DNA of 64,000 bases, taken from Schmidtea nova (lineage: Eukaryota). Below, piece by piece: positions 6,806 to 37,438 of the stretch. The stretch is taken from contig CM097884.1 in assembly GCA_044892505.1 (NCBI GenBank), forward strand, positions 133,796,001 through 133,860,000, given 5' to 3'. The position numbers and the translations under genes are program-made. Positions within the stretch are counted from its first letter, which is position 1. Each line of letters opens with the position of its first letter. The notes under the pieces were generated by a model that ran no database searches, was not told the DNA's origin, and worked only from the letters and a program-made list of their open reading frames with translations.

Positions 6806-7154
6806 TGTTGGGCCCGCCAAATCACCTAAAACCACAATAAAACGAACAAAAGCATGAAACAATAAAGAAATAATAAAAATAAAAATAGCAAGAAAAACAA
6901 ATTAAAAATAACAATAAAACGACAAATAATAATTGATAAATTTTCAGTAAAAGGAAATTTTGAAAATAAACCGGTAAACAACCGCAAAAGGGGGCCTGAA
7001 ATAAGAAAAAATAGAATTAAATAAAATAATAGTGCAAATAATTAATTAATTATTTGAAAAATCAGGACCACCCAGCGAGAAACCGGAAAAGGAAACAAAA
7101 TAATGTTTAGATTAGAATAAAATAATAAAAAATACTTTGATGGACGGCCTGATC

Positions 7155-7192
7155 CTGATTGGTCAATCCAACCAGACGGATCAGTATAAATA
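7155..7192 (+). promoter_or_regulatory. Putative LTR Pol II promoter: reverse CCAAT box and TATA box
   Basis: CTGATTGGTC (about 7155-7164) and TATAAATA (7185-7192). Copies lie at +26723 and +53455. Position is inferred, with no transcript data. Confidence 0.55.
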
Positions 7193-8197
7193 CCGATCCA
7201 AAAATCACAACAAGAGACGTTTTACTTTTCACTTACAATCAAGACTAAACTTTGATTTAAGTAATATTTCATTTAACAAAACGAGAATTTTTTGAAAAAC
7301 AGAATTCAAGTACGGAACGTAATTTTTATTGTTATTTTTTATAATGTACCCATGATTTTTATTCAATTAAAATTTTATATGTAAACGTCATTTTATTTGT
7401 TTTTGATATTGATATTTTAATGCATATAGTTATACTTCCTATGCTGCTCACGCGGCGAGGGAGTCCGAGTCGTCGTTGTGGGGCCTCAGGGTCTCACATG
7501 GCGGTTCAACCTTTTTATTATTTAGTTTAGATGTGGAATTTTATTTAGAAAATTTGATTGAATTCTTAGTCTAGTACAGACCATTTACTAATTATTTAAG
7601 TCTGGGTTGCACAACGGACGAAGGTCGAGGGCCAAATAGGGAGATTGCGGAGGGCGGATTGATAAGGAGGGACACCCCATGGTAGGGCATGCTCATCCTT
7701 TGAATTTTTAGTCAATTGAATCGTAATGGAACCTCCCGCATGGAGAAACAGTGAGCAACAAATAAAATAAATTTGAATAATTTCGCTGAAATGAGAAAAT
7801 TCATCGTAGTCTAAAGTCCGATTTCATTCGGAATCAGCATCTCGCCTACAAAATTATAATATCGATAAATTCCGATCGCGTTGGAATGCGTCGGAAAATC
7901 CAAATTAAATTAGTTACTAAAAATAGGCCGATCGTCGTATATGGCGCGGTTTCCCAAGTTATTCTCCGATCGCTGTATACAGCGCGGAAATCTGTATTAA
8001 ATTCTATATTCCTGAATGCTGTATATAGCACAGGACTAATTATGAACTCTTTATTACGACCGTGGTAGATCACGGCGGAAAAAGATAAAATTAATCTTAT
8101 TTTAAAGTAACTTTTGTGATTATATGCGGTATAAATGAATTATCAACAAATTCCCTCCGGTAAATCACATATTTTATATTCAATAAATGTAATATAG

Positions 8198-8677
8198 ATG
8201 TCGACAGCCGAACTTAGGAATCAATTAACTCAACTACGGAATGTGGAACAAAGGAATATACAGAATGGAAAGATCTCGCAGCTCAAGGATCTACCGGCAT
8301 CGATATTGCGAACCCTCAATTGCCAGATATATAAGTGGCGACATGGGTTTGGCCGAAAATGCCCGTTCTCGATATGGACAGGAGGGAACGACCAAATACT
8401 CTATAGAGGAGGACCGAACTGGCCGATTTCCCAAAGGCCTTATTCAAACAAATTTGGCCGACTTATCGTACTAGTCAAGGACACAGATGGACGGACAAGC
8501 CGTGTAATTTATTGGGGGCATATCCCTCGTCGGGAACTATGCCAACTAGGCCTACACGAATTTCTACCACGAAAACCATTCGGCAAGGAGTGCCAGAAAG
8601 GACAACCCTCATTCTCTTGGGCTCGTCTTCGTCGGAGGCCGATTAACAGCGAATTCCATAGCTTGTTTCGGAGATAA
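8198..8677 (+). CDS. LTR-encoded hypothetical protein A (159 aa); copies at 34921-35400 and 61653-62132
   Basis: ATG-initiated ORF in a GC-richer island of the LTR, flanked by AT-rich spacers. No domain was recognised. Confidence 0.45.
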   Translation: MSTAELRNQLTQLRNVEQRNIQNGKISQLKDLPASILRTLNCQIYKWRHGFGRKCPFSIWTGGNDQILYRGGPNWPISQRPYSNKFGRLIVLVKDTDGRTSRVIYWGHIPRRELCQLGLHEFLPRKPFGKECQKGQPSFSWARLRRRPINSEFHSLFRR

Positions 8678-8864
8678 AAAACTGATTGACAAATGTGTAA
8701 ATTGTGTTCAAATATTAATGTTCAGTGGTGTTTTTATTTTGTTGTTTTGAGTTTTTGTTCAGTGTTTTTTAATAGTTCGTATTCGTAACCTAATAATCCT
8801 ATAATCAGATTTTAATTTTTCACATAATTTAATCATAAAGTAAATCTCCTAAATAAATTATAGA

Positions 8865-9458
8865 ATGACCACCGATTTGATACAGAGAGAATTGGAAAAG
8901 ATGTGGCGGATCCGGAGAGCCCAGGACAAAGAATTGGGTCTCCTCAAGGCACAATTGATCAAAGCAGAGGCACAGATCGCATACTTGCGCAAAAGCTGGT
9001 TTGCTCCGGCCCGAATGAAGGAGCAAATCAGCAAAACCGAACGCGCCCAACAGACCGCAGCCGATTATCAAATGGAATGGGAGGCTACAAAGATAGAGCT
9101 CCGAAAATGCCTCCATTCCGTAACTGCCTCATATATCGAGAAGGAACTCAGAGAGCAAATCCGTCCGGTTACGTACCAAGCTTGGACATCCGAAAAGAAG
9201 ACTGTAAATTCCATTGGCACGGATGTCGCCGATCTAATCGAAAGTCGGAATGAGCCGGTTTCAGCAGTAATTCCATCCACCTCAACGGCAAATGCGCACC
9301 AAAAACGCAAGCGCATTGGGCAGAAAAGGCGAAGACAGAGGAAATTATTCGCGCAGCGATTACAAAGTCAAGTGGATGGTCTACATCAGATGACCGAAGA
9401 GAACTTATTGAAGGAAATTTTCCCTTCAGCTGGAGTTTTTACAGAACTAATTAAATAA
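8865..9458 (+). CDS. LTR-encoded protein B (197 aa), coiled coil plus basic NLS-like patch; copies at 35588-36181 and 62320-62913
   Basis: ATG ORF with a heptad-like N-terminal half and KRKRIGQKRRRQRK. No family was recognised. Confidence 0.55.
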   Translation: MTTDLIQRELEKMWRIRRAQDKELGLLKAQLIKAEAQIAYLRKSWFAPARMKEQISKTERAQQTAADYQMEWEATKIELRKCLHSVTASYIEKELREQIRPVTYQAWTSEKKTVNSIGTDVADLIESRNEPVSAVIPSTSTANAHQKRKRIGQKRRRQRKLFAQRLQSQVDGLHQMTEENLLKEIFPSAGVFTELIK

Positions 9459-9930
9459 AATTTTGGGTTATCTTAAAAAATTTATGTTTCCTTTAAATTG
9501 ATTTGGTAAATTGACAAATAATTAGATCAATATAGTATAAAAGTATAAATTCACATCACGAATTATCTAGTAAAGGCAAATAAATTATTAAGCGAGCAGT
9601 TTGATTTAAACGCTTCCCGCAGAATACGAAATGTTGAAAATAAATTTTCTAAAAAGATTATTGCGGAATATCTAAGCAAATGATTTAAGCATAAGTCCTT
9701 CTAACGGCAGCAATGGACCCGTAAACATAAATGGGGAGTAGTACTAGCGATAGTGCTCACCTGCCCATCATTGTTTAACCACCCTGCGCATCACCAACTT
9801 GATTATATAGGGAAATAATCAAGGGCGCTTGAGTGTAAAATTGCAATTTTATGTATGATCATGGATGAGGGATCCCTAGTCATTGTTAGAACATTTTTCA
9901 TCTAACCCCTCCATGAACCCAGCATAAATT

Positions 9931-11940: not shown

Positions 11941-12552
11941 GTGAACTATAGATATATCCGGATAAAATAGTAATAGAGGGAATATAGACCCATAGTGTAA
12001 TCGTCGACGAGATTTAGAGTAGTGCGCACCAGTAGTTAAGAGAATGCGAGTAAAGCTGATTATGCAACCTTAGGTAAAGCATGCAAGGAGAATAATAAAA
12101 ATTGGAGCTGACCGGAGAAACCGGCAGAATAGACAAAAGGATAAGTTAGAGACGAATAATGAGTAGAGATGATAAAATAATGATAAACGAGTCAGAAAGA
12201 CTCAGGGAATTAGAGCGCTCGAGCGACCAATAATTTGGGAAACGGTGGGAAAAGTAATTGATTTGATAAAACATAGATAATTATTACGACATAAACAGAT
12301 AATTGTGACCAGTCTATAGATAATTTAAATAGACTAAAAATAAAGGGGAATCTGGGAATTGGGAAATAATGAAAACCCAGTAATAAGTAATCCCGAAAGA
12401 AAGTGAATAAAAGCGCGACGATAACAATAATGTATCGTTGAGGACCTTTGTATTTTAGATATACAAATCAATCAAATCAAGCAATCAAGCAAGAAGAATC
12501 AGAACACGATAAGAGATAGGACAAGAAAATTGAGTATACAAAAGTAATCCCC

Positions 12553-15500
12553 TTGAGAAAAGGAGCAAAGAGTGTCGTAGTAAAGCCAACGGAAAAGAAA
12601 GTCGGTAGCAACATTAACAAAAAAGACAAAACTAGTACTACAACAAAATCAACAAAAAAGCAGAAAGCCGGCAAAGATAACCCACAAGGGAGTAAATCGA
12701 GGAAAATAATAAGAGATAAATCGATTACCGAAAACGATAAATTGTCAATAGTAAGCAACAGCTCAAGTAACAAAGAAAACCAAGCCGAACCCAAGGAGAA
12801 CCAAGCAAGTGAAATAGAGAGCGACGAAACTAACAACAATAATATCGAAGAAATAGAACACGAGATAGAACAAGAAGAAGAAATCGACGAAACTAACAAC
12901 GATAATATCGAAGAAGTAGAAAACGAGGTAGAACCAGAGATAGAAATCAACGCGAGTGATAACGAAAGTATAATATCAGATAACGAAGGAATAAAAGAAA
13001 CAGAAAGCGATTCAAGCTCGAGTAAAACGGAAGACGAACATAACAACGAACTAGAAACAAGAGGAAACGAAAGTAAAATAACTCAAGACAGCGGAATTGA
13101 AATGGGTGAACCAAGAGAAGAAATAAAGGATAAATTTTCAGGAGAACCGTTTAACGGAGATGCGAGTAAATTAGAAACCTTTTTAAAAGAATTTGGCATA
13201 TTCGTGGAGGTATGCAAGTGGAAAGCTGAAACAACGGTAAGCAGAATTCAGTTATATTTGAAAGATAGTGCATTGGACCTATATTTGGAAGCGAAAAATG
13301 GTACCAATCCACCTACAAGCTGGACAGCGATAAAGGATTTTTTCCAACAAACATTTGGAATAAATAAAGTGCTGAGCGAGGCATTCATAGAATTCTCAAT
13401 GAGGAAACAAAAGATGAATGAATCTAATGCGGTATACGCGAGCGAACTGAAAAAATTAGCAAAATCGGTATTCAAGGATGGAGGCCCAATAAACGAGGAG
13501 TTAATGGCAGCTATCTTCATAGGAGGACTAAAAAGACCCGACATAAGAGCGCAAGTAGGATGTCAAGGATGCAAAACCATAGATCAAGCGTTAGAAACAG
13601 CTAACCGATTTGAATTGCATATGATAGGAAGTGAGGGCAGAATTTATTTAGCCATGGACACAGCACAAACCGAACCAGAGGTAAATCTCAACAATCACAT
13701 TCCAAATTCGCAACAATTAAACCGACCACCCCCTCAACGAAGGAATGAAGGAAATAAAGTGCAGAACTTTGGAAACCAAAACAATTACAACCCTCAAGGA
13801 CAAACAAAACAATGTAAAACATGCGGGAAGTTGGGACACTGGCAACAAGAATGCTATCAAATTTTGAATTGCGGAAAATGTGGAGTTAAAGGACATTCGG
13901 AGAGTAGATGTTCTACAATAATCTGTTTTAATTGCGGACGACCTGGTCACTATTCAAGAAATTGCGGACAAAAAAGTAATCAACGAGGAAACTGGCAGAG
14001 TAATGGGAACCGACCAAATTACGGAAATCAAGCAAATACCGTAAACCGACCAGATTATGGAAACCAACAAAACAACAATAACAATAATCAGAACAAAACT
14101 ACCACCAAAGAAATTCATTTGATGCAAGAAGTTCAAAGGTTGACGGAACTGATAAACAACACGGCGAGAGGAAATCCGCAAATCAATCCACAACAAATTA
14201 GCATGATGAGAAAGATAGAAAGCGAAAACGAACTATTAAATCGAGAAAGTCAGGCACGACACGCTCAGGAATGGGCAAGAATACAAAGGGAAGATGAACA
14301 AAAACAACAAGAAAGAGAACGACAACCTCTAAGAATTAACATGCTAAGAGCAACAAACCAAACAGACACTCGCGAGAAAGAAACCACACTGGAAATGAAT
14401 TCGATAGACCCGAATCCAGCCGACAACAAAAGTCAAAAGGAGATAGTACAAAAAGATGAGGAAGTAGAAAAAGAAACAGAAAAGGAAGTGGAAACTGAGA
14501 TAAACCAGGAAGAGAGAAGAAAAATTTGGAAAAAAGGAATGATGGTAATCATGCCCAACGACCATATGTTTCGATTCCAATATAACGCAAAAGAAAAGGT
14601 GGAAATACTGTTCAATAAAGTAAACCAGATGATTCCAGGAGTGACAAAACTGCCCAGAGAAGCGTTCTTACAAATAGGAGATGCACCATCAGTAAAATTG
14701 AAATTAACGGATATATGGGAAAACGTGGGAGTAACAGAGACAAAAAGAAATGTGATGAGAATTAAAGAAATAGAACCAGAAGAAATTCCACCACCAATAC
14801 GTCACGAAACCCGAATCCGGCGAATATTTGAAGGAAAAATGATAAGAAGACGTTTAAAAGAGATAGACGAGTTGGGAAAGAAAATGGAAAAAGTCGAAGT
14901 AATAGAGGATAAGAGTGAACCAACACCAGAAATTGACAAAAACGAACCAGAACCAACGGAGAATATACAAGGGGAAACGAACCAAACAGCACATATTAAT
15001 ATGCTAAGAAATACCACCAGAGAGTTCTCCGATGAGGAAGAAGATAGTGACATCAGTAGCCTAGCAGGAGACATATTAAACGAATCCGAAGACGAAAATA
15101 AAGAGAGAGAAGTAATAAAGACCTCAGAACCTACACAGATAAAAGTAGATGAAATCCAGAAATTACTAGATAACTCGCTAGAGGTAATATATAACGAAGA
15201 GTTCATGGACAAGAAACAATATCGGAAATTCATGAAAGCATTATTACAAATGAACTACAAAGAATGGTTACAAGACCGGGAAGTAGACATGTTGAATCGA
15301 TACGTAGGGAAATTAATAGAGGAACCACTCCTCAATTACACCATCTCAATAATAATAAATACATCTACACCAAGAATCTGGATCAAAACTCCATTTACAG
15401 ACGATATCTACAGATGGGTAGAGGATAGACTAGGGAGCTCATATAAAAACAAATTCATCTATTCGCAGAATAGACTCGTAAAGAAAAGAACTCACTTAGT

Positions 15501-18087
15501 AGAAACAGGTATATGGCCAGGAGAAATAACCCTGTTATCAATATGTGATGAAAAAGAAGAAGAGAACCTACAAGAAGTTGCAAGGGAAGCAAACGCGTGC
15601 TTCGAAAGGAGAATAAAACCACGGTTAGAATACGAGAAAGAACGAGTTTTGCGAAAGAATCTAAATTCCCTGATAGAACAAATCATACCACAAGTCAAAA
15701 AACATAGAAAAGAGTTAATGAGAAACGAATACGAGAAATTGAAACGATGTATTGAGTGCATACGTGACACAAGCCACACGAGATGGTCACAGATCTCACA
15801 CGACAAATTAATCGCAAAAATGGGAAAAACAATGTTTAGACAAGGGAAAATAACAGATCTAAAAATTTCAGTAGCATTACCTAATGAGGACACCAAAGAA
15901 ATTGAAGTGGTAGCGGATTGCACCATTAAAGAATTAATAAATGTCATCAATGAGACACTAGTGCAAAGAGAACCAGAAGACGAATGGGAAGACGACATAA
16001 TCATACAATACAACGAACATGTATTATGGGATCACGATGAGAGACGACTATATAAAATCGGTATATGGGATAATCACCAAACAATCCACGTTAGCAGAAT
16101 GGACGATACACCAAGGGAAACTGCTAAAGATGAGAAAAGAGAACGGGAACGACGGAAAGAAGTTGTGCGTAAATTACAACAAATAGTAGAAATTTATCGA
16201 AATTGGCGAATTTGGCCAGAGTGGGAAAATGTATTAGAAGAACTCAATCTCAACAGACGAATACGAACACCCGTAGAAAAACAATGGAACGAGAAAGGAA
16301 AATGTTGGGAACCAAAAGAAGGAGAATATGAAGAAGAATATAAAAGAGGGATAGAAGATGACCGCGAACCAGAGATAGGAAGAGTTTGCATGGTAACAAG
16401 GAAAGCTACGCCAATAGACCTAGATGGACCAGAAACAGCGGCCATGTGGTTAGAAAGGGAAAAGCAAAAAACGGAAGAATTTGTCGAAATATTGAAAACT
16501 AATGCGCACGGTAAGAGAAAATTAATAAAGGGTCTCGCAGATTTTTTCGTGGTAAATGGGGAGGATATAACATGCTTGCGTAAAGTAGCAAAAGCAATCG
16601 CGGAATATAAAAGAGTTAACGAGTGGTGCCCGGAACAACTAGACCACGTAATTAGGAAATGGAGAAATCAAGAATTCTCGCAAGAAATTCCACAGAAAGT
16701 ACATTTAAGAATAATATATCCAAACAAGGATAAGGAAGAGTTGTGGGTAGGAATAGCAGAAAAAATTCGAGATATCAAAAAGAAATTGAGATACGAACCA
16801 CCATTCCATTTACAACACCAAGGACGATCATTAGATAACAGTTTAGAAATTGGAATAACGCCAGCACAACTAGATCTCATGAATACCTTGACAGTAGAAG
16901 CAATAGCAGGTCAACCATTGAAACATAAAGAAGAAAACCATAAACCACACGGAAGTATAAGTACGCCGAGCCCGATGAAATCAGTATTAACACCAGGGAC
17001 AAGTTCGAGACGATCTGAGACAACACCCAGAGGAACCAGAGAAAGGACTCCACCACAACCATACGACGTGGACGAAATCCTAACAGATAGCGATGATATG
17101 ATAGAAGAATTAACTGAATTAACAAAGGAAAAAGACGATAACATTTTCGAAAGAATACAAGAATTACCTACGACAATACAAGTAACCAACACCGGAGAAA
17201 CAGAAGTCGAAGAAGAAATAATAATAGAAGAAGTAAACGATCTGACAGAAGACGAAACGAGAAGAGCAAATGTCGAAAATGTACAATTAACACAAGAAAT
17301 GGAAAGATGGTTAGAAGAAAGAGCTAACGAACCAAGAGATGTCACGGAAGAAACCGGACGGGCAACAAGATTTGTGGAAACAGGCACAGGAATGGATAAA
17401 CGACCTAGAGGTAGACCTAAGACAGACCCAGCAACTGTAGTTGTAAGAAATAAAGACGAAAAGAGACAAGATCAATGGGAATTATGTTTAAGGAAACTAA
17501 ATAAAATTGCGGAGATGAAAGAAAAAGAGACAACACCAATATGTCAAGGGGAGGAATGGATATCAAAAACAATAATGGAAATATTGGCAATAATTGATCC
17601 GGAATTGAGAAAATACTGGCGGATAACTGAGATAAGCGAAAAGGCGAAGTCACTACACAGCGCAATCGCACCCATCCTACCAGAATTCATAAAAGAAAAG
17701 ACGAAGTCAAATCATTTAGACTGGCAAGGAACCACGATGTTAATAAAGAAATTGACAGAAGGAGCGGAAACTGATAATAAATACGTAATAGCCATCGCAT
17801 ACACGATCTACAATCTATTAGCACTGAGTAGAGGTCGACCAAAACCCACTGCATTAGAGAGACATATAAAAAATACCGCAAAGATTATAGCTAGAGAAAT
17901 AGAACCTCACGTTATTAACAAAGGAGGATGGGAAACATTTATAAAAACTAACCAGAAGAAAACGCAAGCCAAGAATATGAAAAAGAAATTCGAAAGAATT
18001 AGGAAAAGAACAAGCAGGAACAGGAAACACGAAGCCATCAATGAATTTGAGTTCTATAATAATTATGATGTTGATATGGATGATTAG
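12553..18087 (+). CDS. gag: Unit 1 Gag-containing polyprotein (Gag, 3 CCHC, Ubl-like x3, AT-hook, Bcl-2-like), truncated by an 11-bp deletion
   Basis: Retrotransposon Gag core from about 13120 and knuckles at 13813-13965. It diverges from the unit 2 ORF after 17999. The ORF-track start is TTG; the first ATG is at 13102. Confidence 0.85.
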   Translation: MRKGAKSVVVKPTEKKVGSNINKKDKTSTTTKSTKKQKAGKDNPQGSKSRKIIRDKSITENDKLSIVSNSSSNKENQAEPKENQASEIESDETNNNNIEEIEHEIEQEEEIDETNNDNIEEVENEVEPEIEINASDNESIISDNEGIKETESDSSSSKTEDEHNNELETRGNESKITQDSGIEMGEPREEIKDKFSGEPFNGDASKLETFLKEFGIFVEVCKWKAETTVSRIQLYLKDSALDLYLEAKNGTNPPTSWTAIKDFFQQTFGINKVLSEAFIEFSMRKQKMNESNAVYASELKKLAKSVFKDGGPINEELMAAIFIGGLKRPDIRAQVGCQGCKTIDQALETANRFELHMIGSEGRIYLAMDTAQTEPEVNLNNHIPNSQQLNRPPPQRRNEGNKVQNFGNQNNYNPQGQTKQCKTCGKLGHWQQECYQILNCGKCGVKGHSESRCSTIICFNCGRPGHYSRNCGQKSNQRGNWQSNGNRPNYGNQANTVNRPDYGNQQNNNNNNQNKTTTKEIHLMQEVQRLTELINNTARGNPQINPQQISMMRKIESENELLNRESQARHAQEWARIQREDEQKQQERERQPLRINMLRATNQTDTREKETTLEMNSIDPNPADNKSQKEIVQKDEEVEKETEKEVETEINQEERRKIWKKGMMVIMPNDHMFRFQYNAKEKVEILFNKVNQMIPGVTKLPREAFLQIGDAPSVKLKLTDIWENVGVTETKRNVMRIKEIEPEEIPPPIRHETRIRRIFEGKMIRRRLKEIDELGKKMEKVEVIEDKSEPTPEIDKNEPEPTENIQGETNQTAHINMLRNTTREFSDEEEDSDISSLAGDILNESEDENKEREVIKTSEPTQIKVDEIQKLLDNSLEVIYNEEFMDKKQYRKFMKALLQMNYKEWLQDREVDMLNRYVGKLIEEPLLNYTISIIINTSTPRIWIKTPFTDDIYRWVEDRLGSSYKNKFIYSQNRLVKKRTHLVETGIWPGEITLLSICDEKEEENLQEVAREANACFERRIKPRLEYEKERVLRKNLNSLIEQIIPQVKKHRKELMRNEYEKLKRCIECIRDTSHTRWSQISHDKLIAKMGKTMFRQGKITDLKISVALPNEDTKEIEVVADCTIKELINVINETLVQREPEDEWEDDIIIQYNEHVLWDHDERRLYKIGIWDNHQTIHVSRMDDTPRETAKDEKRERERRKEVVRKLQQIVEIYRNWRIWPEWENVLEELNLNRRIRTPVEKQWNEKGKCWEPKEGEYEEEYKRGIEDDREPEIGRVCMVTRKATPIDLDGPETAAMWLEREKQKTEEFVEILKTNAHGKRKLIKGLADFFVVNGEDITCLRKVAKAIAEYKRVNEWCPEQLDHVIRKWRNQEFSQEIPQKVHLRIIYPNKDKEELWVGIAEKIRDIKKKLRYEPPFHLQHQGRSLDNSLEIGITPAQLDLMNTLTVEAIAGQPLKHKEENHKPHGSISTPSPMKSVLTPGTSSRRSETTPRGTRERTPPQPYDVDEILTDSDDMIEELTELTKEKDDNIFERIQELPTTIQVTNTGETEVEEEIIIEEVNDLTEDETRRANVENVQLTQEMERWLEERANEPRDVTEETGRATRFVETGTGMDKRPRGRPKTDPATVVVRNKDEKRQDQWELCLRKLNKIAEMKEKETTPICQGEEWISKTIMEILAIIDPELRKYWRITEISEKAKSLHSAIAPILPEFIKEKTKSNHLDWQGTTMLIKKLTEGAETDNKYVIAIAYTIYNLLALSRGRPKPTALERHIKNTAKIIAREIEPHVINKGGWETFIKTNQKKTQAKNMKKKFERIRKRTSRNRKHEAINEFEFYNNYDVDMDD

Positions 18088-21000
18088 CACCGATAGCGCA
18101 ACAGCATTCGAAGTGTTTGATTGCGACCAAATGAAGTTAGGAGAAAAGTATTCATTGAGGGGTACGGAGCAATGCAAAGATGCAACTCCAGTAGAGTTAC
18201 AAAAGATTAAAAAGGAACAATGGTACCACGTGTATCAAGAAGCAGAACTCATAAAGACAATGGTGAATGAATGTAAGGTGCAGAAGACGAGATTCGCTTT
18301 CTACTGCGGGAGAGGACATTATTCAGCAATTGTCATGCCAGGAACGGAAAGAGAACCAATCGTGTTACAAGGAGAAGACTGCGAAGCACTGTTTAAACAC
18401 GGAGAAGTAACAACAAGAGATAAAATCAAGATAAGAGGAAAGCCAGGAATGATGATGCAACAGACGTACTATGTAGCAGGACGGATTACGGGAGGAGAAG
18501 GATATTGTCAAGGAGAAACCTACCCGATATTCGGAGTACCCGCAACCAACTTAGTGGTGATGGATACGTACATAGTCGAACTAAAAAGCTACGAAGCATT
18601 CTTTGAACCCACAACGGGAGAAATGAAAACGTTATCCATGTGTAAAATCGACAGGAGCATGTGTCAAACGGGAATGTCAACATTAGTGTACAAACCAAAG
18701 GTAAACGAATGTCAGTTACAACTGCTACAAGGAGCAAAGTTCGACGAAATCCAAGGAAAAACGTTCCAGGAAGAAGACGATGACGACAAAGATAGAGCAA
18801 AGCATCTCAAGGAAGCTTTAGAGAATAAAAGACAACTGAAACCGGATCATAGAGAAAAACGAATAGAGATGAGAGCCACACCAACAGTATTGATAACCAC
18901 AAATCAGGATGTGGGAATGAGGTTCATAAAAGGGAAAGCAACCCTTAAGTGTAGTACAACGGTATACGAAACGAATTACCCAGGAATATATGTGTCAAAA
19001 CAAGAAGTGCCGAATGCGAAACCCAAAATCGACACAATGGATATCAAACTACACTTGTATGTGAATAATAAAATGGATTTCCTATTCCATAGAGGACAAG
19101 CCTCATTACAAAAAGTGTACTACGATCTAATAAACAATGATTGTATACTGAATCGAGAAATATTAAAGACAAAGTTGGCCGTGGCGATTACGAATCCAGA
19201 TAGAGCGATGCCATTATTACCACTGAGAGAAGGACATTTCGGAAGAGTGGTCGGAGAAGCAATGTACGTATACATTTGCGAAAAAACACACGCGTCGCTA
19301 GCAGCAACAACACAGTTGAAACCTGGAACCTGTACAAATGAGTTAGAAATCGATTACAAAGGAAAAGTACGATACGTTCAACCGGTGACGAGAATCATCA
19401 ATCCACCAGGGTTTGAACCAAATCCATTCAACTGTAGTAATGCGTACGGACCGCTCTATCAGAAACCAGATGGTAGATGGGTTATGTTCCCAGGAAGATC
19501 CGAAGTGATAGCACCAAGAGAATTCGAGCTAATGCAGTTGTCAAAGGATAGGCAATTCAGCGACGTAGATGTCTCAAACAACGGAATATATAGTCCGAAA
19601 GATTTAGAAGCAGCAAGGCAGAATATATTATTTCCAGCGAGAAGAGAAGCATTACTGTCAAATATCGTAACGATAACGGGAGGAACGAATTATCGAGAAG
19701 GACCGAATTATGAACTGTTGTTGTCACCAGCACATTTCAAGAAAGCCACCGAAAACATGATGAAAGCAATGTGGGGAAGATTCTTGATATTCGGACAAAT
19801 GATGGCTGGAATACTGGGGGTTATATTAATAATCCAAATCGTCAGAGTGATAATAACGCAAATGCTCGCGTGTTTTGACATCTACAAGAGAGAAAAGAAA
19901 GTGAATTGGAAAATGGTAGTAGGGTTTTTACCATTCCTTGCGAAAACGATGGTGTTACACGGGCACTCAAAAGATATCCACCGAATAAAAAGACTCCTAA
20001 AGATATTAGCAAAAATGAAGGGAACAGATGAAGAAGTAGGACGAAAATTTAAAAAGATAATGAACGACGAACAAGCAAGACAACAGCTCAAGAGAGAAAG
20101 AAAAGGTTTATGGGAGAGGATGAAAGGATATAAAACCCAAAATGATTCGAGTGACGACGATGATGACGATGACGACTATAAGGGAGGACAAGTGTATAAG
20201 AACCAAGCACCACAATACATCGAAAAGAATCCAGCCGACGCATGGAAATGTTACGCACCTCCACCAACAATGTATCAAGAACCACTACAAGGGGGAAAAA
20301 ATAGCACGATGCAAATGATGCCAATGACAAATGTATACCCCATGATACCAGAAGATTATAAAATGAGAAGATGTAGAAGCGTAGATCCACAAGGAGATAC
20401 ACACACGATCGCAGTAATGTCATCCAACACAGGTCCAGTACTAACCACGACAATAGAGATTAACGGAAGAGAAATCGAAGCAATGATCGACACGGGAGCA
20501 AACATTTCCGCCATCGACATCAAATGGATACCACAAGAGCAAAGACGGGAAATAGAAAGGACAAACGTCCATGTAATTGCATGTAGCAAAGAAGTTGTAG
20601 AAGTAGCAGGAAGATGGTGGGTAAAAATACGCCACTTAAATACAGAAATCGATACGTACGTAGCAGTCATACCAGCGTTAAGTGTACCTTGCATCATCGG
20701 AACAGATTTGATGCCAGCATTATTTAAAGAAATTGTAATCGATCTCGGAACAATGAGACTGAAAGATCGCACAGGGCAGATATGCGCAATAGAAGCTAAA
20801 GTGACGAGTTCAAAGCAAATGATCATACCCGCAAGAAAGGAAAAAATATGTTATGTAAAAATAGATCCGACAATCCAAGGGGATATGATTTTCGAACCAA
20901 GTAAAAGATTCGAGAAAAGAAAAGCGTTGCCAATGGCAAGAGGATTAGTCAACATAAATGACAATGGAGAAATCCCAATAAATATGGTAAATTTCGACGA

Positions 21001-24000
21001 GGAGGATAAAATAATCTACGAAAACGAAAGACTAGGTAAATTAACCCCAATGATGGATATCGAATTGCCAATAGAAGGAGCAGAGAAAGATAAAGAGCCA
21101 ACCTGGAATATAGATAGTGAATTATTAAATGAGGATCAAAGGAAGCAGTTAGAAAAACTCCTGATAGAGTATAAGGATATATTTGCAGCATCCGATTTGG
21201 ATCTAGGAACATGTGATGTCACACTACATACAATACCATTAACAGATGAAACACCAATTGCATTAAGGCCGTACAAATTAGCGGAAGCACAGAAAGCAGT
21301 AGCAGAAGCAGAAGTGAAGAAAATGTTGGATGCAGAAGTAATCGAACCAAGTTGTTCACCCTGGCAATTTCCAGTGGTAATGGTAAAGAAAAAAGACGGA
21401 ACACAGAGATTCTGCATCGACTATCGAAGATTGAATACAGTGACAAAAAGAGATACCTACCCATTACCGGACATCAATGAAATGTTATTAACCTTACAGG
21501 GAGCAGCATATTTTACGTCGTTAGATCTGAAAAGCGGATATTGGCAAATAAAAATGAAGGAAGAAGATAAAGAGAAAACTGCCTTTACCATCGGGAGAGA
21601 TTTATATCAATTTCGGAAAATGCCATTTGGATTAACGAACGCACCAGCATCATTTCAGAGATGCATGAATTTCGTCACCCACGGAATAAAGCAGTGCATG
21701 GTCTACATCGACGACTTATTGATTTACTCTAGTACATTCAAACAACACATACATGATATTCGAGATGTATTCGTTAGGCTTAGACAATGGAAGTTAAAAC
21801 TCAAGCCATCAAAATGCGATTGGGCAAAAGAAAAGGTTACATTTTTAGGACATATAGTGTCAGCAAAAGGAAAAGAACCGGATCCTAGAAATATCGACAA
21901 GGTAAAAGAATGCCCAGTACCAAAAACAATAACCCAAATACAAGAATTTCTCGGATTATGCGGATATTATAGAAAGTTTATAAAAGATTACGCCGGAATC
22001 GCAAAACCTATACAGGAACTGGTAAAGAAAGATGTATCATTCATATGGGGGGATGAACAACAAACAGCTTTTGAAACATTGAGAGATAAACTGATAACCG
22101 CACCCATATTGGTACACCCAGACTTCAAGAAGCCATTCCTACTTGCAACGGATGCAAGCGGATATGCAGCAGGAGCAGTATTAGGACAATACGATGATGA
22201 AGGAAAAGAACGTGTAATCGGATATTATAGCCGGACATTCAAAAAGCATGAGAAAAATTATTCAGTGACAGAACGGGAAGCATTAGCAATTATATTAGCA
22301 ATTAAACATTTTAAATATTTATTATGGGGACACATCATCTGCATAACAACAGATCACCAACCGCTTGTATGGTTAGGACAGCATAAGGAAACCTCCAGTA
22401 GACTAATGCGATGGGCAATGCAGTTACAGGAGTACTCACCAGACATAAAATTTAAATCAGGAAGAGCGAATGCGAATGCGGATTGTATGTCAAGACTGAC
22501 ATTTCCAGAACTAACCGATCCTGATGTACAACGGATTTGTGTATTAATAGCAGAAGATCTAGATTTTAGTGAGTTAAAGAAAGATCAACAGGAAGACAAA
22601 GAATTGGGACAGATCATAGAGTTCCTAACGTCTCGAAATATGGAGGTATTCAAGGATAATAAGGAATTAAAGGAACACATAGGAAAATATCAACATCGCT
22701 ACATAATAAATAAAGGATGGTTGTTAATACAAGACGGGGAAAAGAGATTGATGTGTTTACCGGAAAACAGAAGGAAAGAGATAATGATCCAGTACCATGA
22801 TGGGAAATTAGGAGGTCATATGTCCGAGAAAAAGACAATAAACCGTATGAGACAAAAATATTATTGGCGAACAATGGAAGAAGATATAAAAGAATGGATT
22901 AAAAATTGCCTAACTTGCGCAACCAGAAAGGATAGTGGGAAGAAATGGAAAAACCCGCTACAACCAATGCCGATACCAGCAGAGCCAATGACAACTATAG
23001 CAATGGACGTAATAGGACCATTACCAGAAAGTTTAAACGGAAATATTTATATATTGGTAATAACGGATTATCTGACGAAATTCCCGGAAGCATTTGCCAT
23101 GCAAGACCAAAAAGCAAAAACCGTAGCAAAAATTCTAGTGGAAGAAATATGTTGCAGATACGGAACTCCAAAACAAATACTCACAGACCAAGGAACTAAT
23201 TTTATGAGTGAATTATTGAACGAGGTGACAAACTACTTCAGAATAGCAAAATTGAGAACTTCACCATATCACCCGCAAACGAATGGACAAACGGAGCGAT
23301 TCAACGGCACATTGATTAGAATGTTATCAAATTACGTCAGCAGACATCAAACTGATTGGGACGAATACATAAAATTATGTTTAATGGCATACCGAATGTC
23401 GATACATGCAGCAACAAAACTAAGCCCATTTCAACTTATGTATGGAAGAGAATGCAACATGCCCATAGATTTAGAGTATCAGCCACCATTATCGCAATAT
23501 ATGGAAGATGACGACTACGTAACCAAATTCAAAGAAAGGATGCAAGAAATATGGAAAACGGCAGAACTCAACATTAAATTTTATCAGGAAAGTTATAAGG
23601 ATTTACACGACCAGAAGAAAAATGTTAAAGCGAACGATCTAAAACCAGGAGATTGGGTGATAATAGAAACTCCCGAAATAATACCAGGAACTGTTAAGAA
23701 ACTCCAAAGACCTGGAAGAGGACCTTATGAAATTATATACAAAAAGGACAATAATGTCAAAGTTAAGCTAATAAATCGACCGTTAATACGACCCATATAT
23801 GTAAACACCTGCAGATGTAAGAAAGTGCCTAAAACGATAACTACCACACCAGAAAATCGAATAATAACCAGATCACAAACAGCCAGGATAAATATGCTCA
23901 GAGCTAATGCAACGGAAGACGACAAAGCAGAAATAAGGCAAAAAGAAATCAGAAATAAAGAAATCATATTGAAGGCGAGAGAGATAATGGGAAGATGGCA

Positions 24001-27000
24001 TGTTAAAGACGAAGTAGGCATATCAAGGGATATTAGACATATAATTAGCCGTTACGCACAAGGATTACCAACCGAACCAATTATTTCTGAATTATTGGAA
24101 AAAATCCCTGAAATACTCTTATTGAAAGATGTAGGAGGACAACCAGCCTTACACAATGCGATAGAGTGTAAAAACATTGAAAGAGCAAAAGAATTCCTAA
24201 AAATCGCAAAAGAAACAAACCAAAACTTGGACGTAGGGAATCGTGAACAAGAAACTCCATTAATGACAGCCGCAATCCACCAAGCAGATAAAGAAATGGT
24301 AGATTTATTGATAAAAGCCCATTTCAGTTGGACAGAACGAGATAGAGAGGACAAAACAGTGCTAAATCACGTAATATGGAGTTCTCACCAACCAATGCTG
24401 AAATACATAATAGCTAACTCCACTTGGGAGATAGACGAACTAGTTAAAGGAGACATTATCAAAGAGGCAATCAAAATTGGTAAATGCAACACGATCCGTA
24501 AGTTAGTCAAATGGAAACGACCAGAAGATGATACATGGGTCTTAGACATAAACGAAGTATACAGCGAAGGACAAAACGCACTGTTAAGATACCTTTTGAA
24601 ATTTACTTGTGATCAGAAGACATTACTAACCTTATTAGACAGAGGAAACATAAACATCACAAAGAATGAAGAAGAACATCAATTCGATAAAGAAAAGAAT
24701 GCCTTATTCAACAAGATTAGGAAATGGTGTGCGAAACCACTTGATAAACTAATAACATACAAAGACATAAACAATTTTAACGAGAAATACCAAACGATAG
24801 TAAGCGAATATGAGGAATTAGTAAAAATCTTAAACCATCCCGAAAAATGCAAACAGGTTTTGGAGAAAAAAGAAAGAGAAAGTAACAAGAAACTCACACC
24901 ACTCTTTAAAGCAGAAGCACCATACCAAGCTAGACTAGATGCGATACAAAAAAAAGCAAAAGAATTGTTACCGGAATTCGAGAATAGCAAACATGCACTG
25001 GAAATACTCGGCGCATTAGTTGAAAAAGTACACGCATACGCAAAAGGAACATACAATGGTAACGATATAACGACTATAAAAAAGGAGATGCCAGTAACAT
25101 TTTTACTACCAAAGGACGGAATAATGCCCATACATAGAGCTTTACGAAATGGCAAAGATAGAAAAGTAATGGAAATTGCAAGAGTAATGCTAAATTGCGG
25201 AAGCAATATGAATATGATAGACGAGAAAGGAGATACACTTATGGTATTTGCAGCAAGGGCCAAAACGAAAACAAAGGTATTAGAGGAACTATACAAAGCA
25301 GGTGCAGGACTTACAGGTAAAACAGATAAAGATAATTCAATATTGGATGTAGCATTACTAACACATAATTGGGAAATGGTCAACTTCATTAAAACCATCT
25401 CAAATCAGGAAGAAATAGAATACCTAACTAAAACAATTAAGAAACCCAGTTTACTGACAATGATGCACAATGCCGAACTAACAGAATCAATACTTACGTG
25501 GATAAATCCTAATACCAACGAACCAGCATTCAAGATTAATGAGTTTACAGAACATAACCAAAACTGGTGTATAAGAAGTGCCTTAATAACGTATAAATGG
25601 CCCGAGATATTGAAGATGTTTATGGAAAGAAAGGATCTAAGAATCACAACCAGCCCGAAAGAAGAAAAATACACAGGCAAATGGAAAGAATTGATGAAGA
25701 CATACATCAACAATTGGATCAAGGCCAAAAAGGAAATCTTGGAATATAAATCCACTAACAAAGTAATACCGGAGCAGGTAGAAACACAAGAATTTGAGGC
25801 AAGTAACCTAACGACATTAGCATATGCAAAATTGATAGAAGAAATCAATGTCGAGGACGACATTTTCGACGAGCCAGGGGGAGATGACAATACAGATAGT
25901 GACGACGGTAACAACTCAGAAAATTCAAACGATCACGAACCACCCGATAAAGAGGAAAACGAGAGAAAAGACAAGAAACGAGACAAGGAAGAAAAGGAAA
26001 GTGAAGACGAAAAACAAAGAGATGAAGATGGAGAACAAGGAAAAAACGACCAAGGAGATAAAAATGACACCCAAAGAACAAGTTATAAATCAACCATAAA
26101 ACCATTCTTCAAACCAGAATTACTATTATTAACAGTGATTTTAACGTTAATTAACCCAAGTCAAGGAATGACATGTGAAGAAAGGGCAATAATACAAATA
26201 AAAAACGCAAAAGGAATCGAACGAGTATGTTGGTCAAAAAAGGACAAAATCACGGAACAAAATAGCCCGATGGATTGCAGAATCTCAAAACACGAGCAAG
26301 AGATCATAGAGATCAACGACCTAGATCTAGACACCTGGTACAAAATATGCACCGTTAGGAAACAAAAACATCCAAGATCACACAACACAATCGCATGTGC
26401 AAAATACCAAACACCTAAAGTAGCCATGACAATACAACAGTCACCCAAAGGAGATTACATCCTCGGAAAATGTGGAAGAACAGAGACACAAGGAACAGAA
26501 AACAAAAAACCCCAGGCAATAGATAAGCAAACAACACCAACCCTACGAATTACAATAGAGAGGCCCGAAACAAGAATTGCCACAAACGAAACCGAAAGAG
26601 TGTCTTACCAAATGGAAGTATTATGCTTAGCACTCATACTAATAATAATAAAACGATTAGAGGAAGGAATAGAAATTGAAACTATGACAATAACAGAAGT
26701 GGAGGATACACAGAACACTAACATAAAATGTTGGGCGAGGAATGACGAAGAAATCGGCGTAAACGAAATAAGGAAAAGTCGAAAGCCAACAACAAACAAA
26801 GTAATTAAAGTATCCGAAATAAGAGCAGACAAGATGTACAAACTATGCCTACTTGAAAAAGAGAGGAACAAGAAAGGTACCACAAAATGTAAAACATTCC
26901 AACCTGGAGAGGTAATAAAGTTCAGAAGGAGAACGAGGAAGAGAAATAAACAAATCAAGCAGAAACTAAACATAACATTAGAAATAAAAGAAATAGAACC

Positions 27001-29557
27001 AAATGTGAAAGGAGTATGCTGGAGGAAGTACGAAAAAGAAACGAATGAAAGAAAGACACCACAATGTCGAACAAGCACAGGAGCAACGACGATACAAATA
27101 AAAGGTTTAGAAAGTAAACAAACTTACGAAATATGTCTGGTAAAGAAAAATGATCAGATAACGATAAACGACCTAGAATGCGGAATATACACCACTTCAT
27201 CCGGAACCAGAACTAAAACGTTAACACGAAAAAATAAAAGAAGACAACGAAACAAAGGGAAACCGAAGTACACCACTACCTTTAAAAACAATAAACAACC
27301 GATAAGCCAGGAAGTTACGACAAAACCCGAGAGAAAGACATCAGCAACTCTAACATTATGGAAAATAGAGAATAAAACACTAGAAATATGTTGGATAATA
27401 GTTCAGAAACATATAAGAAGACAATCAAGAGAGTGCAGGAAAACAAATAAAGAAATCAAGATCGAAAAACTACAATTTAATAGCGAGTATGAAGTATGTA
27501 CAATAGAAAAAATGGACACACTAGGAAACCAACAAGAAAGATGCGAAACCTACTATACACCAGCAAACGCGACATCAAAAGGAGTAGCAAGGAAACTCGA
27601 ATTCAAAGAACTAAGCCAAACGAATGAACAAATGGACGCAGAAAAAACAATAACCGACCCTCAAGCAAAATGGACACCCGAAGAAGTTATCAAGGAAGTC
27701 AAAAGAAAGCAAGAGGAACGGGAACAATTAATGAGAAAACTAAAGGGACAATACGGAATAATGTTCAACCAAAGCGAACCTATACAAACAGACGAGAATA
27801 AAGAAATTAAAGAACTAATCGGCTTAGGAATATTAACAGCAACCATACCAGTAATAATCGCGTTATCAGCTATATGGATACGCAAGATGAGCCCAAGAAA
27901 ATCAACAACCCAATGGCTAAATATAGATAATACAAGCCATGGAGTAGAAATACTAGAAGAAAAAGCACGAGAAGAACCAAATAAGAAAGAAGCGAAAAGC
28001 GGAAAACTAGGAATAAACAACAAAGACAAGGAAATAAAAGAGATTAAAGGCGAAGAGAAAAAATATGAAAGGCGAACCAGAAGCCTACCGCAGAGTTCAA
28101 AATGGTTGAGTCTAACAATAATATTGACATTAATCAATAGGGAAGAAGCAACAAACCTACAAGCAGGGATAAAAATAGTAAATGTCCAGGAGGTCGAGAA
28201 AATATGCTGGAATAGAGAGGATGAACCAATTGGGAAAGATAACCCACTAAAATGTATAATCAGAAAATCCGACCAGGATATAGTACGAATAGAAGGGATG
28301 GACAGAGGAATCATACATAGGATATGCATAATAGGAAAGGAAAAGAAGTCGGGGCTACCTAAGACAGTCGTATGTCAAAAATACGAAACGCCTGGACTCG
28401 AATGGTATAGAGTAAAACCAACAAAGAAAGAAATCAAAAACACCATAGATCAACCAGCAACTCAGATAAGAAACACAACGGATAAACCAGGAGAAGGAGA
28501 GAAAAGCACCAATAAAACGAGAGAAAGAATATTACCCCAACAGGAGTGCGTATGCATAGCATTAATACTAGCAATGTCCAAACGTATCGATAAAGGAATA
28601 ATAATAGAACAAATGGCCATAACAATAAGGAAAACAAGTAGCAACAAACTATGCTGGGGAACATACAACGAACCAAGGAAGGAATACCAAGTTCAGACAA
28701 GCGACGAATCACGAACAAACAAGGAAATCGAAATACAAGAAATACAAATGAATGAAGAAGGAAGTATATGTATCTGGGAGAGAGGAATCCAAGAGGGAAT
28801 AGAGCATTGCAAGACATTCCAAAAAGGAGAGATACTGAAATTCGATGAAGAAGAATTAACAAAAACAGAAAGAACTCTGACATTAACAGGACTCGATCAG
28901 ACAGTTAAAGGAATATGTTGGACAAAGCATAACCCAGAAGGGGAAGAAGACAACCTAACCCACTGTAAAGAAATAAAGAATAAAGAAAAAATCGAATTAA
29001 GGAAAATGGAAGTAAATAAGACATACGCGATATGTACCTTCACTAGAAAAGGTTCAGAAAAACCAGAATGCGGATTATATCAGATCTCAGAGAAACTACA
29101 ACAACAGATCGAACCAGGAAACGTGGAAAACCGAACAAAAGAAAATAACGTCAAACAACTACTAAATCGCCATTGGTCTACACAAGAAGTAATGAACAAA
29201 GTCAAGAATCAAGTACAGAAGGAGAAGAAGCCAGAGGCTCAAACCCAAAATGAGATAAAAGCGAATCAGAATAAAATCAAAGCAACAAACCGTGGAAAAA
29301 CAGTAATAGGATTAATCAGTATAGGAATATTAATAGCATATGGGATAATGACGACAAGCATAATAAAATATTGGAGATACAGAAAGAGAAACAAAGCGAC
29401 AGCCATACAATGGCCAGATATTAAAATTATGAAGCAAAGAATAGAAATACCAGAAGAGATACAGCAAGAATTCCAAAGAAGAACGAAAGGTAAAGAATTC
29501 TGGAAACAAATAGAAGACGAAGAACGATACGAGGAAAAGACGATAATGATGGTATAG
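18041..29557 (+). CDS. pol: Unit 1 Env-Pol-accessory polyprotein (3838 aa)
   Basis: Signal peptide plus glycoprotein (18041 to about 19956), protease DTG at 20489, RT YIDD at 21704, RNase H (LATDASG at about 22142), integrase (about 22796-23830), ankyrin repeats (about 24127-25390) and FN3-like modules (about 26117-29373). Confidence 0.9.
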   Translation: MNLSSIIIMMLIWMISTDSATAFEVFDCDQMKLGEKYSLRGTEQCKDATPVELQKIKKEQWYHVYQEAELIKTMVNECKVQKTRFAFYCGRGHYSAIVMPGTEREPIVLQGEDCEALFKHGEVTTRDKIKIRGKPGMMMQQTYYVAGRITGGEGYCQGETYPIFGVPATNLVVMDTYIVELKSYEAFFEPTTGEMKTLSMCKIDRSMCQTGMSTLVYKPKVNECQLQLLQGAKFDEIQGKTFQEEDDDDKDRAKHLKEALENKRQLKPDHREKRIEMRATPTVLITTNQDVGMRFIKGKATLKCSTTVYETNYPGIYVSKQEVPNAKPKIDTMDIKLHLYVNNKMDFLFHRGQASLQKVYYDLINNDCILNREILKTKLAVAITNPDRAMPLLPLREGHFGRVVGEAMYVYICEKTHASLAATTQLKPGTCTNELEIDYKGKVRYVQPVTRIINPPGFEPNPFNCSNAYGPLYQKPDGRWVMFPGRSEVIAPREFELMQLSKDRQFSDVDVSNNGIYSPKDLEAARQNILFPARREALLSNIVTITGGTNYREGPNYELLLSPAHFKKATENMMKAMWGRFLIFGQMMAGILGVILIIQIVRVIITQMLACFDIYKREKKVNWKMVVGFLPFLAKTMVLHGHSKDIHRIKRLLKILAKMKGTDEEVGRKFKKIMNDEQARQQLKRERKGLWERMKGYKTQNDSSDDDDDDDDYKGGQVYKNQAPQYIEKNPADAWKCYAPPPTMYQEPLQGGKNSTMQMMPMTNVYPMIPEDYKMRRCRSVDPQGDTHTIAVMSSNTGPVLTTTIEINGREIEAMIDTGANISAIDIKWIPQEQRREIERTNVHVIACSKEVVEVAGRWWVKIRHLNTEIDTYVAVIPALSVPCIIGTDLMPALFKEIVIDLGTMRLKDRTGQICAIEAKVTSSKQMIIPARKEKICYVKIDPTIQGDMIFEPSKRFEKRKALPMARGLVNINDNGEIPINMVNFDEEDKIIYENERLGKLTPMMDIELPIEGAEKDKEPTWNIDSELLNEDQRKQLEKLLIEYKDIFAASDLDLGTCDVTLHTIPLTDETPIALRPYKLAEAQKAVAEAEVKKMLDAEVIEPSCSPWQFPVVMVKKKDGTQRFCIDYRRLNTVTKRDTYPLPDINEMLLTLQGAAYFTSLDLKSGYWQIKMKEEDKEKTAFTIGRDLYQFRKMPFGLTNAPASFQRCMNFVTHGIKQCMVYIDDLLIYSSTFKQHIHDIRDVFVRLRQWKLKLKPSKCDWAKEKVTFLGHIVSAKGKEPDPRNIDKVKECPVPKTITQIQEFLGLCGYYRKFIKDYAGIAKPIQELVKKDVSFIWGDEQQTAFETLRDKLITAPILVHPDFKKPFLLATDASGYAAGAVLGQYDDEGKERVIGYYSRTFKKHEKNYSVTEREALAIILAIKHFKYLLWGHIICITTDHQPLVWLGQHKETSSRLMRWAMQLQEYSPDIKFKSGRANANADCMSRLTFPELTDPDVQRICVLIAEDLDFSELKKDQQEDKELGQIIEFLTSRNMEVFKDNKELKEHIGKYQHRYIINKGWLLIQDGEKRLMCLPENRRKEIMIQYHDGKLGGHMSEKKTINRMRQKYYWRTMEEDIKEWIKNCLTCATRKDSGKKWKNPLQPMPIPAEPMTTIAMDVIGPLPESLNGNIYILVITDYLTKFPEAFAMQDQKAKTVAKILVEEICCRYGTPKQILTDQGTNFMSELLNEVTNYFRIAKLRTSPYHPQTNGQTERFNGTLIRMLSNYVSRHQTDWDEYIKLCLMAYRMSIHAATKLSPFQLMYGRECNMPIDLEYQPPLSQYMEDDDYVTKFKERMQEIWKTAELNIKFYQESYKDLHDQKKNVKANDLKPGDWVIIETPEIIPGTVKKLQRPGRGPYEIIYKKDNNVKVKLINRPLIRPIYVNTCRCKKVPKTITTTPENRIITRSQTARINMLRANATEDDKAEIRQKEIRNKEIILKAREIMGRWHVKDEVGISRDIRHIISRYAQGLPTEPIISELLEKIPEILLLKDVGGQPALHNAIECKNIERAKEFLKIAKETNQNLDVGNREQETPLMTAAIHQADKEMVDLLIKAHFSWTERDREDKTVLNHVIWSSHQPMLKYIIANSTWEIDELVKGDIIKEAIKIGKCNTIRKLVKWKRPEDDTWVLDINEVYSEGQNALLRYLLKFTCDQKTLLTLLDRGNINITKNEEEHQFDKEKNALFNKIRKWCAKPLDKLITYKDINNFNEKYQTIVSEYEELVKILNHPEKCKQVLEKKERESNKKLTPLFKAEAPYQARLDAIQKKAKELLPEFENSKHALEILGALVEKVHAYAKGTYNGNDITTIKKEMPVTFLLPKDGIMPIHRALRNGKDRKVMEIARVMLNCGSNMNMIDEKGDTLMVFAARAKTKTKVLEELYKAGAGLTGKTDKDNSILDVALLTHNWEMVNFIKTISNQEEIEYLTKTIKKPSLLTMMHNAELTESILTWINPNTNEPAFKINEFTEHNQNWCIRSALITYKWPEILKMFMERKDLRITTSPKEEKYTGKWKELMKTYINNWIKAKKEILEYKSTNKVIPEQVETQEFEASNLTTLAYAKLIEEINVEDDIFDEPGGDDNTDSDDGNNSENSNDHEPPDKEENERKDKKRDKEEKESEDEKQRDEDGEQGKNDQGDKNDTQRTSYKSTIKPFFKPELLLLTVILTLINPSQGMTCEERAIIQIKNAKGIERVCWSKKDKITEQNSPMDCRISKHEQEIIEINDLDLDTWYKICTVRKQKHPRSHNTIACAKYQTPKVAMTIQQSPKGDYILGKCGRTETQGTENKKPQAIDKQTTPTLRITIERPETRIATNETERVSYQMEVLCLALILIIIKRLEEGIEIETMTITEVEDTQNTNIKCWARNDEEIGVNEIRKSRKPTTNKVIKVSEIRADKMYKLCLLEKERNKKGTTKCKTFQPGEVIKFRRRTRKRNKQIKQKLNITLEIKEIEPNVKGVCWRKYEKETNERKTPQCRTSTGATTIQIKGLESKQTYEICLVKKNDQITINDLECGIYTTSSGTRTKTLTRKNKRRQRNKGKPKYTTTFKNNKQPISQEVTTKPERKTSATLTLWKIENKTLEICWIIVQKHIRRQSRECRKTNKEIKIEKLQFNSEYEVCTIEKMDTLGNQQERCETYYTPANATSKGVARKLEFKELSQTNEQMDAEKTITDPQAKWTPEEVIKEVKRKQEEREQLMRKLKGQYGIMFNQSEPIQTDENKEIKELIGLGILTATIPVIIALSAIWIRKMSPRKSTTQWLNIDNTSHGVEILEEKAREEPNKKEAKSGKLGINNKDKEIKEIKGEEKKYERRTRSLPQSSKWLSLTIILTLINREEATNLQAGIKIVNVQEVEKICWNREDEPIGKDNPLKCIIRKSDQDIVRIEGMDRGIIHRICIIGKEKKSGLPKTVVCQKYETPGLEWYRVKPTKKEIKNTIDQPATQIRNTTDKPGEGEKSTNKTRERILPQQECVCIALILAMSKRIDKGIIIEQMAITIRKTSSNKLCWGTYNEPRKEYQVQTSDESRTNKEIEIQEIQMNEEGSICIWERGIQEGIEHCKTFQKGEILKFDEEELTKTERTLTLTGLDQTVKGICWTKHNPEGEEDNLTHCKEIKNKEKIELRKMEVNKTYAICTFTRKGSEKPECGLYQISEKLQQQIEPGNVENRTKENNVKQLLNRHWSTQEVMNKVKNQVQKEKKPEAQTQNEIKANQNKIKATNRGKTVIGLISIGILIAYGIMTTSIIKYWRYRKRNKATAIQWPDIKIMKQRIEIPEEIQQEFQRRTKGKEFWKQIEDEERYEEKTIMMV

Positions 29558-30038: not shown

Positions 30039-30131
30039 ATAAATAAAGCGGAAAACTGTAAATATGTAAAAATAAAAACAAGAAAAATCAAAAAATAAAT
30101 GACAAGTCGAATGTATATATTATTGTAGAAA

Positions 30132-36500: not shown

Positions 36501-36647
36501 ACCACCCTGCGCATCACCAACTTGATTATATAGGGAAATAATCAAGGGCGCTTGAGTGTAAAATTGCAATTTTATGTATGATCATGGATGAGGGATCCCT
36601 AGTCATTGTTAGAACATTTTTCATCTAACCCCTCCATGAACCCAGCA
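33529..36647 (+). repeat. LTR2 (shared central LTR, 3119 bp)
   Basis: Same sequence as LTR1. One private SNP was spotted (T at 34213 versus G at 7490 and 60945). It is preceded by the 3' priming region and followed by a PBS. Confidence 0.95.
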
Positions 36648-36976: not shown

Positions 36977-37438
36977 ATGGAGGAAAAACTGAAGGAAATC
37001 GAAGAATTTCTCAACACGGAAAGCGAAACATTAGAAACGATTGGCAAGAAAATAAACCGATTTAGAGAAATTGAATTTCAGGAACCCACAACACAGACTG
37101 AGGAAACAGAGGAATTAATAAAGATAACAGAAAGAACAAGTAAAATCGACATAAAGACCCGCTACAAATGGTACAGAGCACGATTAGAAGATGCAGAACT
37201 AAACATTAAGTTCAGGCAAATAGGACAACAATTAACCCCAACATACAATCGATGGAGGGCGCAAGGGGTAGAAGCAGCGAAAAAATACCGACAGTGCTAT
37301 ATATGTGAGGATAGGGAGATACAAATTATGTTTTTACCTTGCGGACATTTTCGTTTTTGTAAAATATGTGCCAGCAAGCGCGACCTATGTCCTATGTGCA
37401 ACCTGATGATAGACGATAAAATTATTGTATATTTATAA
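36977..37438 (+). CDS. IAP-type RING protein, unit 2 copy
   Basis: Identical translation to 10254-10715. Confidence 0.85.
   Translation: MEEKLKEIEEFLNTESETLETIGKKINRFREIEFQEPTTQTEETEELIKITERTSKIDIKTRYKWYRARLEDAELNIKFRQIGQQLTPTYNRWRAQGVEAAKKYRQCYICEDREIQIMFLPCGHFRFCKICASKRDLCPMCNLMIDDKIIVYL

Follow-up and report, generated by a model that had tools for sequence, protein, structure and literature searches.

A strongly diverged and very probably Bcl-2-like domain lies ahead of the envelope protein in a Burro-type retroelement of Schmidtea nova

The closest described systems are the Burro elements, in which section 7 of PMC6431247 notes a BCL2-like motif (citing Grohme 2018; GYPSM1, Jurka 2007), takes the region between BCL2 and the protease as Env and places ubiquitin-like stretches between MATH and BCL-2. 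The presence of a Bcl-2-like domain in such elements is, for Burro, already in print, and that section contains no discussion of anchoring, of the state of the Bcl-2 homology (BH) motif BH1 or of an extra helix. The literature searched, which did not extend to Grohme 2018, Lee 2026 or the supplements, yielded no experiment on the function of the Burro BCL2 motif. Here we analyzed a stretch of 64,000 nucleotides of Schmidtea nova (contig CM097884.1 of GCA_044892505.1, positions 133,796,001 to 133,860,000, hereafter the window), which contains two tandem units of a Burro-type Ty3/gypsy long terminal repeat (LTR) element with a unit spacing of 26.7 kb and an LTR length of 3.1 kb (n=3). New here are the boundary of the domain that precedes Env, its family alignment, the state of BH1 and BH2, relatives lacking the domain, and a natural anchor-less copy in unit 1.

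The window element, as far as section 7 of PMC6431247 describes the known ones, resembles Burro/GYPSM1 in its giant Gag-Env-Pol frame with CCHC knuckles, in the BCL2-like domain followed by in-frame Env, protease (PR), reverse transcriptase (RT), RNase H (RH), integrase (IN) and ankyrin, and in the presence of MATH/TRAF. Two features of the Burro type were found, namely an LTR element longer than 25 kb with a single frame of about 5000 residues, and the in-frame order Gag-BCL2-Env-PR-RT-RH-IN-ankyrin with a MATH/TRAF accessory. In the sister family L181 (RT 88% and domain about 30% identical), MATH lies within a frame of about 5000 residues, as described for Burro1; in contrast, the window family has its MATH/TRAF in a frame 3' of the polyprotein, shows no BIR match in its RING frame, and has a domain below Pfam detection. 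Likened to Burro by published description, the window family may be an undescribed member. No BIR domain was matched in the frames scanned, which included the RING frame and part of the small frames.

Viral Bcl-2 proteins of large DNA viruses are encoded by free-standing genes with their own tail anchors; unlike them, the window domain lies inside a retroelement polyprotein, ahead of a predicted cleavable signal. It is like KsBcl-2, A179L, BHRF1, DPV022 and F1L, which are among its best fold matches, in being a putatively captured, diverged fold with eroded BH motifs.

The first-pass annotation proposed a Bcl-2-like helical domain ahead of Env, and our results uphold it: the window domain is very probably a strongly diverged Bcl-2 homologue, as suggested by transitive profiles together with individually weak fold searches on low-confidence models. 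A profile built from 18 sequences of six sister families, all of which match PF00452 at E≤1, with the window left out, found a single significant place in the 5682-residue polyprotein (residues 1686-1812, E 9.7e-7). The window domain scored 26.0 bits with this profile, its reversed sequence 1.9, and the best of the 991 shuffles listed out of 1000 reached 11.2; three outside relatives with Gag-Env-Pol gave nothing significant (lowest E 0.33). Furthermore, a 19-row family profile matches Bcl-xL across helices 4-8 (E 3.5e-9; a second family-profile figure is 1.7e-7), and a profile from 10 host Bcl-2 exons matches the window domain with E 1.4e-4. The profile of the window clade alone reached E 0.77 at best, though the Bcl-2 family accounted for 53 of its 54 rows. 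Family membership by sequence homology, to PF00452 or to solved members, is thus reached transitively only.

Two AlphaFold models of the domain are all-helical. The Foldseek check proposed earlier returned nothing but Bcl-2 chains among the matches listed (47/47 and 43/43), at E values of at least 0.005 and from models of low confidence. In two VIA structure rankings from these models, Bcl-2 chains took 15 of the first 16 places in one and all of the first 20 in the other, and the top match in a viral structure library was a viral Bcl-2 (E 0.067).

Two results weigh against Bcl-2 homology, and would favor a chance match of an unrelated helical bundle carrying a GGW motif: the window domain alone has no useful match in Pfam, PDB sequences or the ESM Atlas, and both models are weak (pLDDT 54.8 and 54.0, with no gain from an 18-row alignment input, 54.0 vs 54.8). 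Such a coincidence is nevertheless extremely unlikely and already largely refuted by the leave-one-out profile, the shuffles, the positional identity with Pfam-positive sisters and the host-exon profile. A strict BH2-like pattern, drawn up after the sequence was seen, has a single match in the polyprotein and none in 2000 shuffles; a loose pattern matches 33 of the 2000. Among 1.84 billion representatives the sole match of the window domain was an ankyrin protein, which was dismissed. A homologue search with the domain plus Env as query gave 0/7997 candidates, and one with the polyprotein gave 3/1729.

The anatomy of the domain largely follows the first-pass annotation. The proposed BH2 translates to EIEPHVINKGGWETFI and aligns to LEPWIQENGGWDTFV of Bcl-xL, with the first Trp replaced by His or Tyr in the window's clade; its GGW and a Tyr of helix 5 are invariant in 25/25 aligned sequences. 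The predicted loss of BH1 also holds, since TDNKY aligns with Bcl-xL NWGRI: the NWGR of the canonical cellular pro-survival subgroup is TDNK in the window, without the Gly. The Lys at the BH1 Arg position is invariant within the window's clade, and family C has NWDR/NRDR. No profile match reaches the stretch where BH3 of helix 2 would lie, which shows only a degenerate pattern by eye. The copy in unit 2 (44191-44664) is, as proposed, letter-identical to 17470-17943. The extent proposed, about 150 helical residues from 17470, agrees with both models in being helical throughout; however, the alignments with solved Bcl-2 chains begin only around model residues 24-30, near 17536, and the first 20 or so residues thus form an additional conserved helix outside the canonical fold. 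Likewise, the domain does precede the Env signal but not immediately, as GGW is 62 residues from the predicted Env start and about 40 from the hydrophobic core.

It is possible, though rather doubtful, that the Bcl-2 fold here has a non-apoptotic job, either as a poxviral A46/B14-like adaptor blocking innate or ubiquitin signalling or in sorting Gag to Env at the endoplasmic reticulum (ER). Pro-survival and Bak/Bok-type chains rank far above A46, and the invariance of the BH2 GGW, together with a BH1 basic residue kept in 6 of 10 aligned families, also counts against such a job.

The extra N-terminal helix keeps an ungapped spacing to GGW in families A, H, I, L and M, across families that are 28-83% identical, and the families with LxxIA are those retaining the BH1 basic residue. 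The LGKIADTI of family H (7/7 copies listed) is what we take to be a complete match to the BH3 pattern. The helix could accordingly act like a BH3, either occupying the groove of its own domain or binding host Bcl-2 proteins, so as to make a self-gated or decoy domain, which we consider unlikely: the covariation with BH1 comes from no more than three clades, Glu stands in place of Asp in the window family, and the helix is of low confidence in both models. Since the helix profile retrieved no BH3 peptide (0/7 rows, mostly coiled coils), the resemblance is a lead only.

Each of 13 element families examined in this genome, the window's among them, has a domain that terminates in GGW ahead of the Env signal (K partial). 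Families B and C were collected with the Pfam Bcl-2 model, E, F and G with Env queries, H, I, J and K with an RNase H query, and D, L and M with domain queries; all seven found without using the domain as query carry it. The distance from domain to Env ranges between 42 and 67 residues in the families where it was measured, and of 925 genomic candidates for the window domain, the 150 that were scored all match it at 93-100% identity. The domain is present throughout three supported element clades, and the RT (64/52) and Env trees conflict on one gain versus losses. P0004, P0005 and P0006, outside Gag-Env-Pol relatives, show the same Env position and keep the signal, with no Bcl-2-like domain. 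In each of the three, protease-like DTG motifs also occur more than once.

Purifying selection acts on the domain, as on the whole frame. In 26 copies picked by Env, after 3 of 29 were dropped for an indel or foreign flank, the ratio of nonsynonymous to synonymous diversity (piN/piS) was 0.024 for Env; the domain core gave 0.058 and the linker upstream of it 0.092, a difference with P about 0.10; a synonymous count of 72:15 was biased by copy choice and not used. If the domain were just a folded spacer placing the Env signal, with vestigial Bcl-2 chemistry, this would suit the three relatives that build Gag-Env-Pol without the domain, the identity of only 12-30% between families across clades, and selection not clearly above that of the linker. 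We regard a mere spacer as very unlikely, given that no loss was seen among the 13 sampled families, that surface BH2 residues are kept, and that families A and H are 52-57% identical in the domain versus 35-37% directly upstream.

In the same genome, host Bcl-2 family loci (L031-L039 and L050) show profile homology to the element domain over helices 4-8. The best match among 10 exons was L036 (E 7e-11). In this gene GGW is followed by a splice donor; the element lacks an intron at that place, as expected if a spliced message was captured. Host Bcl-2 genes retain a W-containing BH1, whereas the BH1 Trp of the window domain is gone. A domain tree, which left out two BOK-like host exons, placed the 10 element rows on one side at 94/92 (not starred) and singled out no donor. 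L036, L038 and L050 form a divergent host subfamily having the helix 5 Tyr common to all element domains, and include the best host match. A scan of the regions flanking two host Bak/Bax-like exons, some 60 kb in all, gave no convincing BH3 exon.

A C-terminal hydrophobic segment with signal-peptide features follows the domain in 29/30 copies and is also present in the three domain-less relatives. Small residues occupy positions -3/-1 of the shared Env start in 12/14 elements, and the core is short (best 19-residue hydropathy 1.59, compared with 2.63 over 17 residues for the Env transmembrane (TM) segment). By these features, the segment is best taken as a normal cleavable signal of Env. Its presence in relatives without the domain indicates that it is not the tail of the captured gene itself. 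In established membrane topology, the polypeptide ahead of an internal signal stays cytosolic and remains attached to the ER until it is cut further. With this topology, it is plausible that the Env signal doubles as a membrane anchor of the domain, at the ER rather than at mitochondria. Read-through from domain to Env was found in 29/30 genomic copies examined. In unit 1, the first frame stops at 18087 without the hydrophobic segment, the frameshift near 17,994 having separated its domain copy from the signal.

We propose that the domain is a pro-survival factor keeping the producing cell alive, and give the whole chain that follows about an even chance. An ancestor would have captured a spliced host Bcl-2 message between a ubiquitin-like region and a pre-existing Env leader. 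The internal signal would insert in the ER membrane with its N-side cytosolic and signal peptidase would release Env, so that the domain remains on the cytosolic side, where the cleaved signal would hold it. The element protease would then cut the domain from Gag, and the domain, using a non-canonical groove, would attenuate death signalling by the Bcl-2 family, alongside the element's RING and TRAF-like proteins. Viral Bcl-2 proteins without BH motifs are reported to be still able to block death (PMC11209288), Burro1 is described as abundant and active (PMC8532177), and a Burro1 inhibitor of apoptosis (IAP)-like protein as protecting stem cells (Lee 2026, via PMC13465017). The fuller version, an ER-tethered viral-type Bcl-2 cut from the polyprotein, with the Env signal as tail anchor and gated by a second, N-terminal BH3-like helix that canonical Bcl-2 folds lack, seems quite unlikely. 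If the domain is pro-survival, Burro elements would combine a Bcl-2 arm with the IAP arm reported for Burro1, like large DNA viruses, and this would bear on the persistence of very abundant retroelements in flatworm stem cells.

Table 1. Positions of the domain, its motifs and the element features in the window.
Feature	Position	Strand	Basis or remark
Bcl-2-like fold, predicted helices 1-8, unit 1	17536..17955	+	profiles; bounds from structure-model alignment range
Unit 2 copy of the Bcl-2-like fold, part of the Gag and Env frame	44257..44676	+	same letters as unit 1 over 44191-44664
BH2-like motif	17896..17943	+	translation EIEPHVINKGGWETFI
BH1 position, TDNKY where Bcl-xL has NWGRI; basic residue alone retained	17770..17784	+	profile alignment and family alignment
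Additional helix at the N-terminus, motif LxKIA[ED], not part of canonical fold; BH3-like by eye only	17461..17526	+	
AT-hook-like KRPRGRPK just 5' of domain	17398..17421	+	also families B, H, I, L, M
Predicted signal peptide of Env in unit 2; candidate anchor for the C-terminus of the domain	44776..44838	+	
Env-like glycoprotein, mononegavirus-type fusion protein; TM segment 46513-46614	44839..46620	+	PF24664, E 4.6e-72
Nearest RINMLR-type motif upstream of domain; candidate site for the element's own protease	43090..43135	+	
Unit 2 frame, 5682 aa: Gag (CCHC), Bcl-2-like, Env, PR, RT, RH, IN, ankyrin repeats, further hydrophobic segments	39241..56289	+	open reading frames, Pfam
Unit 1 version of the 5682-aa frame, split in two (12520-18087, 17981-29557)	12520..29557	+	
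Place of short frameshifting deletion in unit 1, near 17,994	17990..18000	+	
LTR 1 (TG...CA), then primer-site-like stretch	6806..9924	+	
LTR 2, common to both units	33529..36647	+	
LTR 3	60261..63379	+	same as LTR 1 over 3120 bases
Accessory RING-finger frame, upstream of unit 2 polyprotein	36977..37438	+	unit 1 copy 10254-10715
Accessory TRAF-like frame (zf-TRAF, MATH; weak RING), downstream of polyprotein	30129..31508	+	unit 2 copy 56861-58240

The coding regions of the two units are three substitutions and one deletion apart, and TTTT is found on both flanks of 6806-63379; together with the identity of LTR 1 and LTR 3, this points to a very young insertion. Tandem arrays of 29- and 32-base units lie in the leader before Gag (11043-12050 and 37766-38771), with copy numbers that differ between units. 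Short minus-strand frames also run over the domain region. No RNA dataset was listed as containing this stretch; four contig runs from one study cover it and do not bear on expression. Upstream of the domain, Pfam AT_hook gave a weak match, in relatives only, and two stretches in 42600-43700 are ubiquitin-like by eye, with no Pfam match to ubiquitin. RINMLR-type motifs, candidate protease sites, occur at five places in the polyprotein, including after the integrase (40918, 41056, 41716, 43105 and 50620).

After the integrase and ankyrin, region 53300-56100 contains extra hydrophobic segments and Cys-containing repeats (weak Fn3, E 0.066) resembling additional membrane proteins; such post-ankyrin segments are not mentioned in section 7 of PMC6431247. 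P0004-P0006 likewise finish in signal- and TM-like segments. Beyond the element, the window also contains a hAT transposase-like frame at 660-2156 (PF05699, E 2.1e-6).
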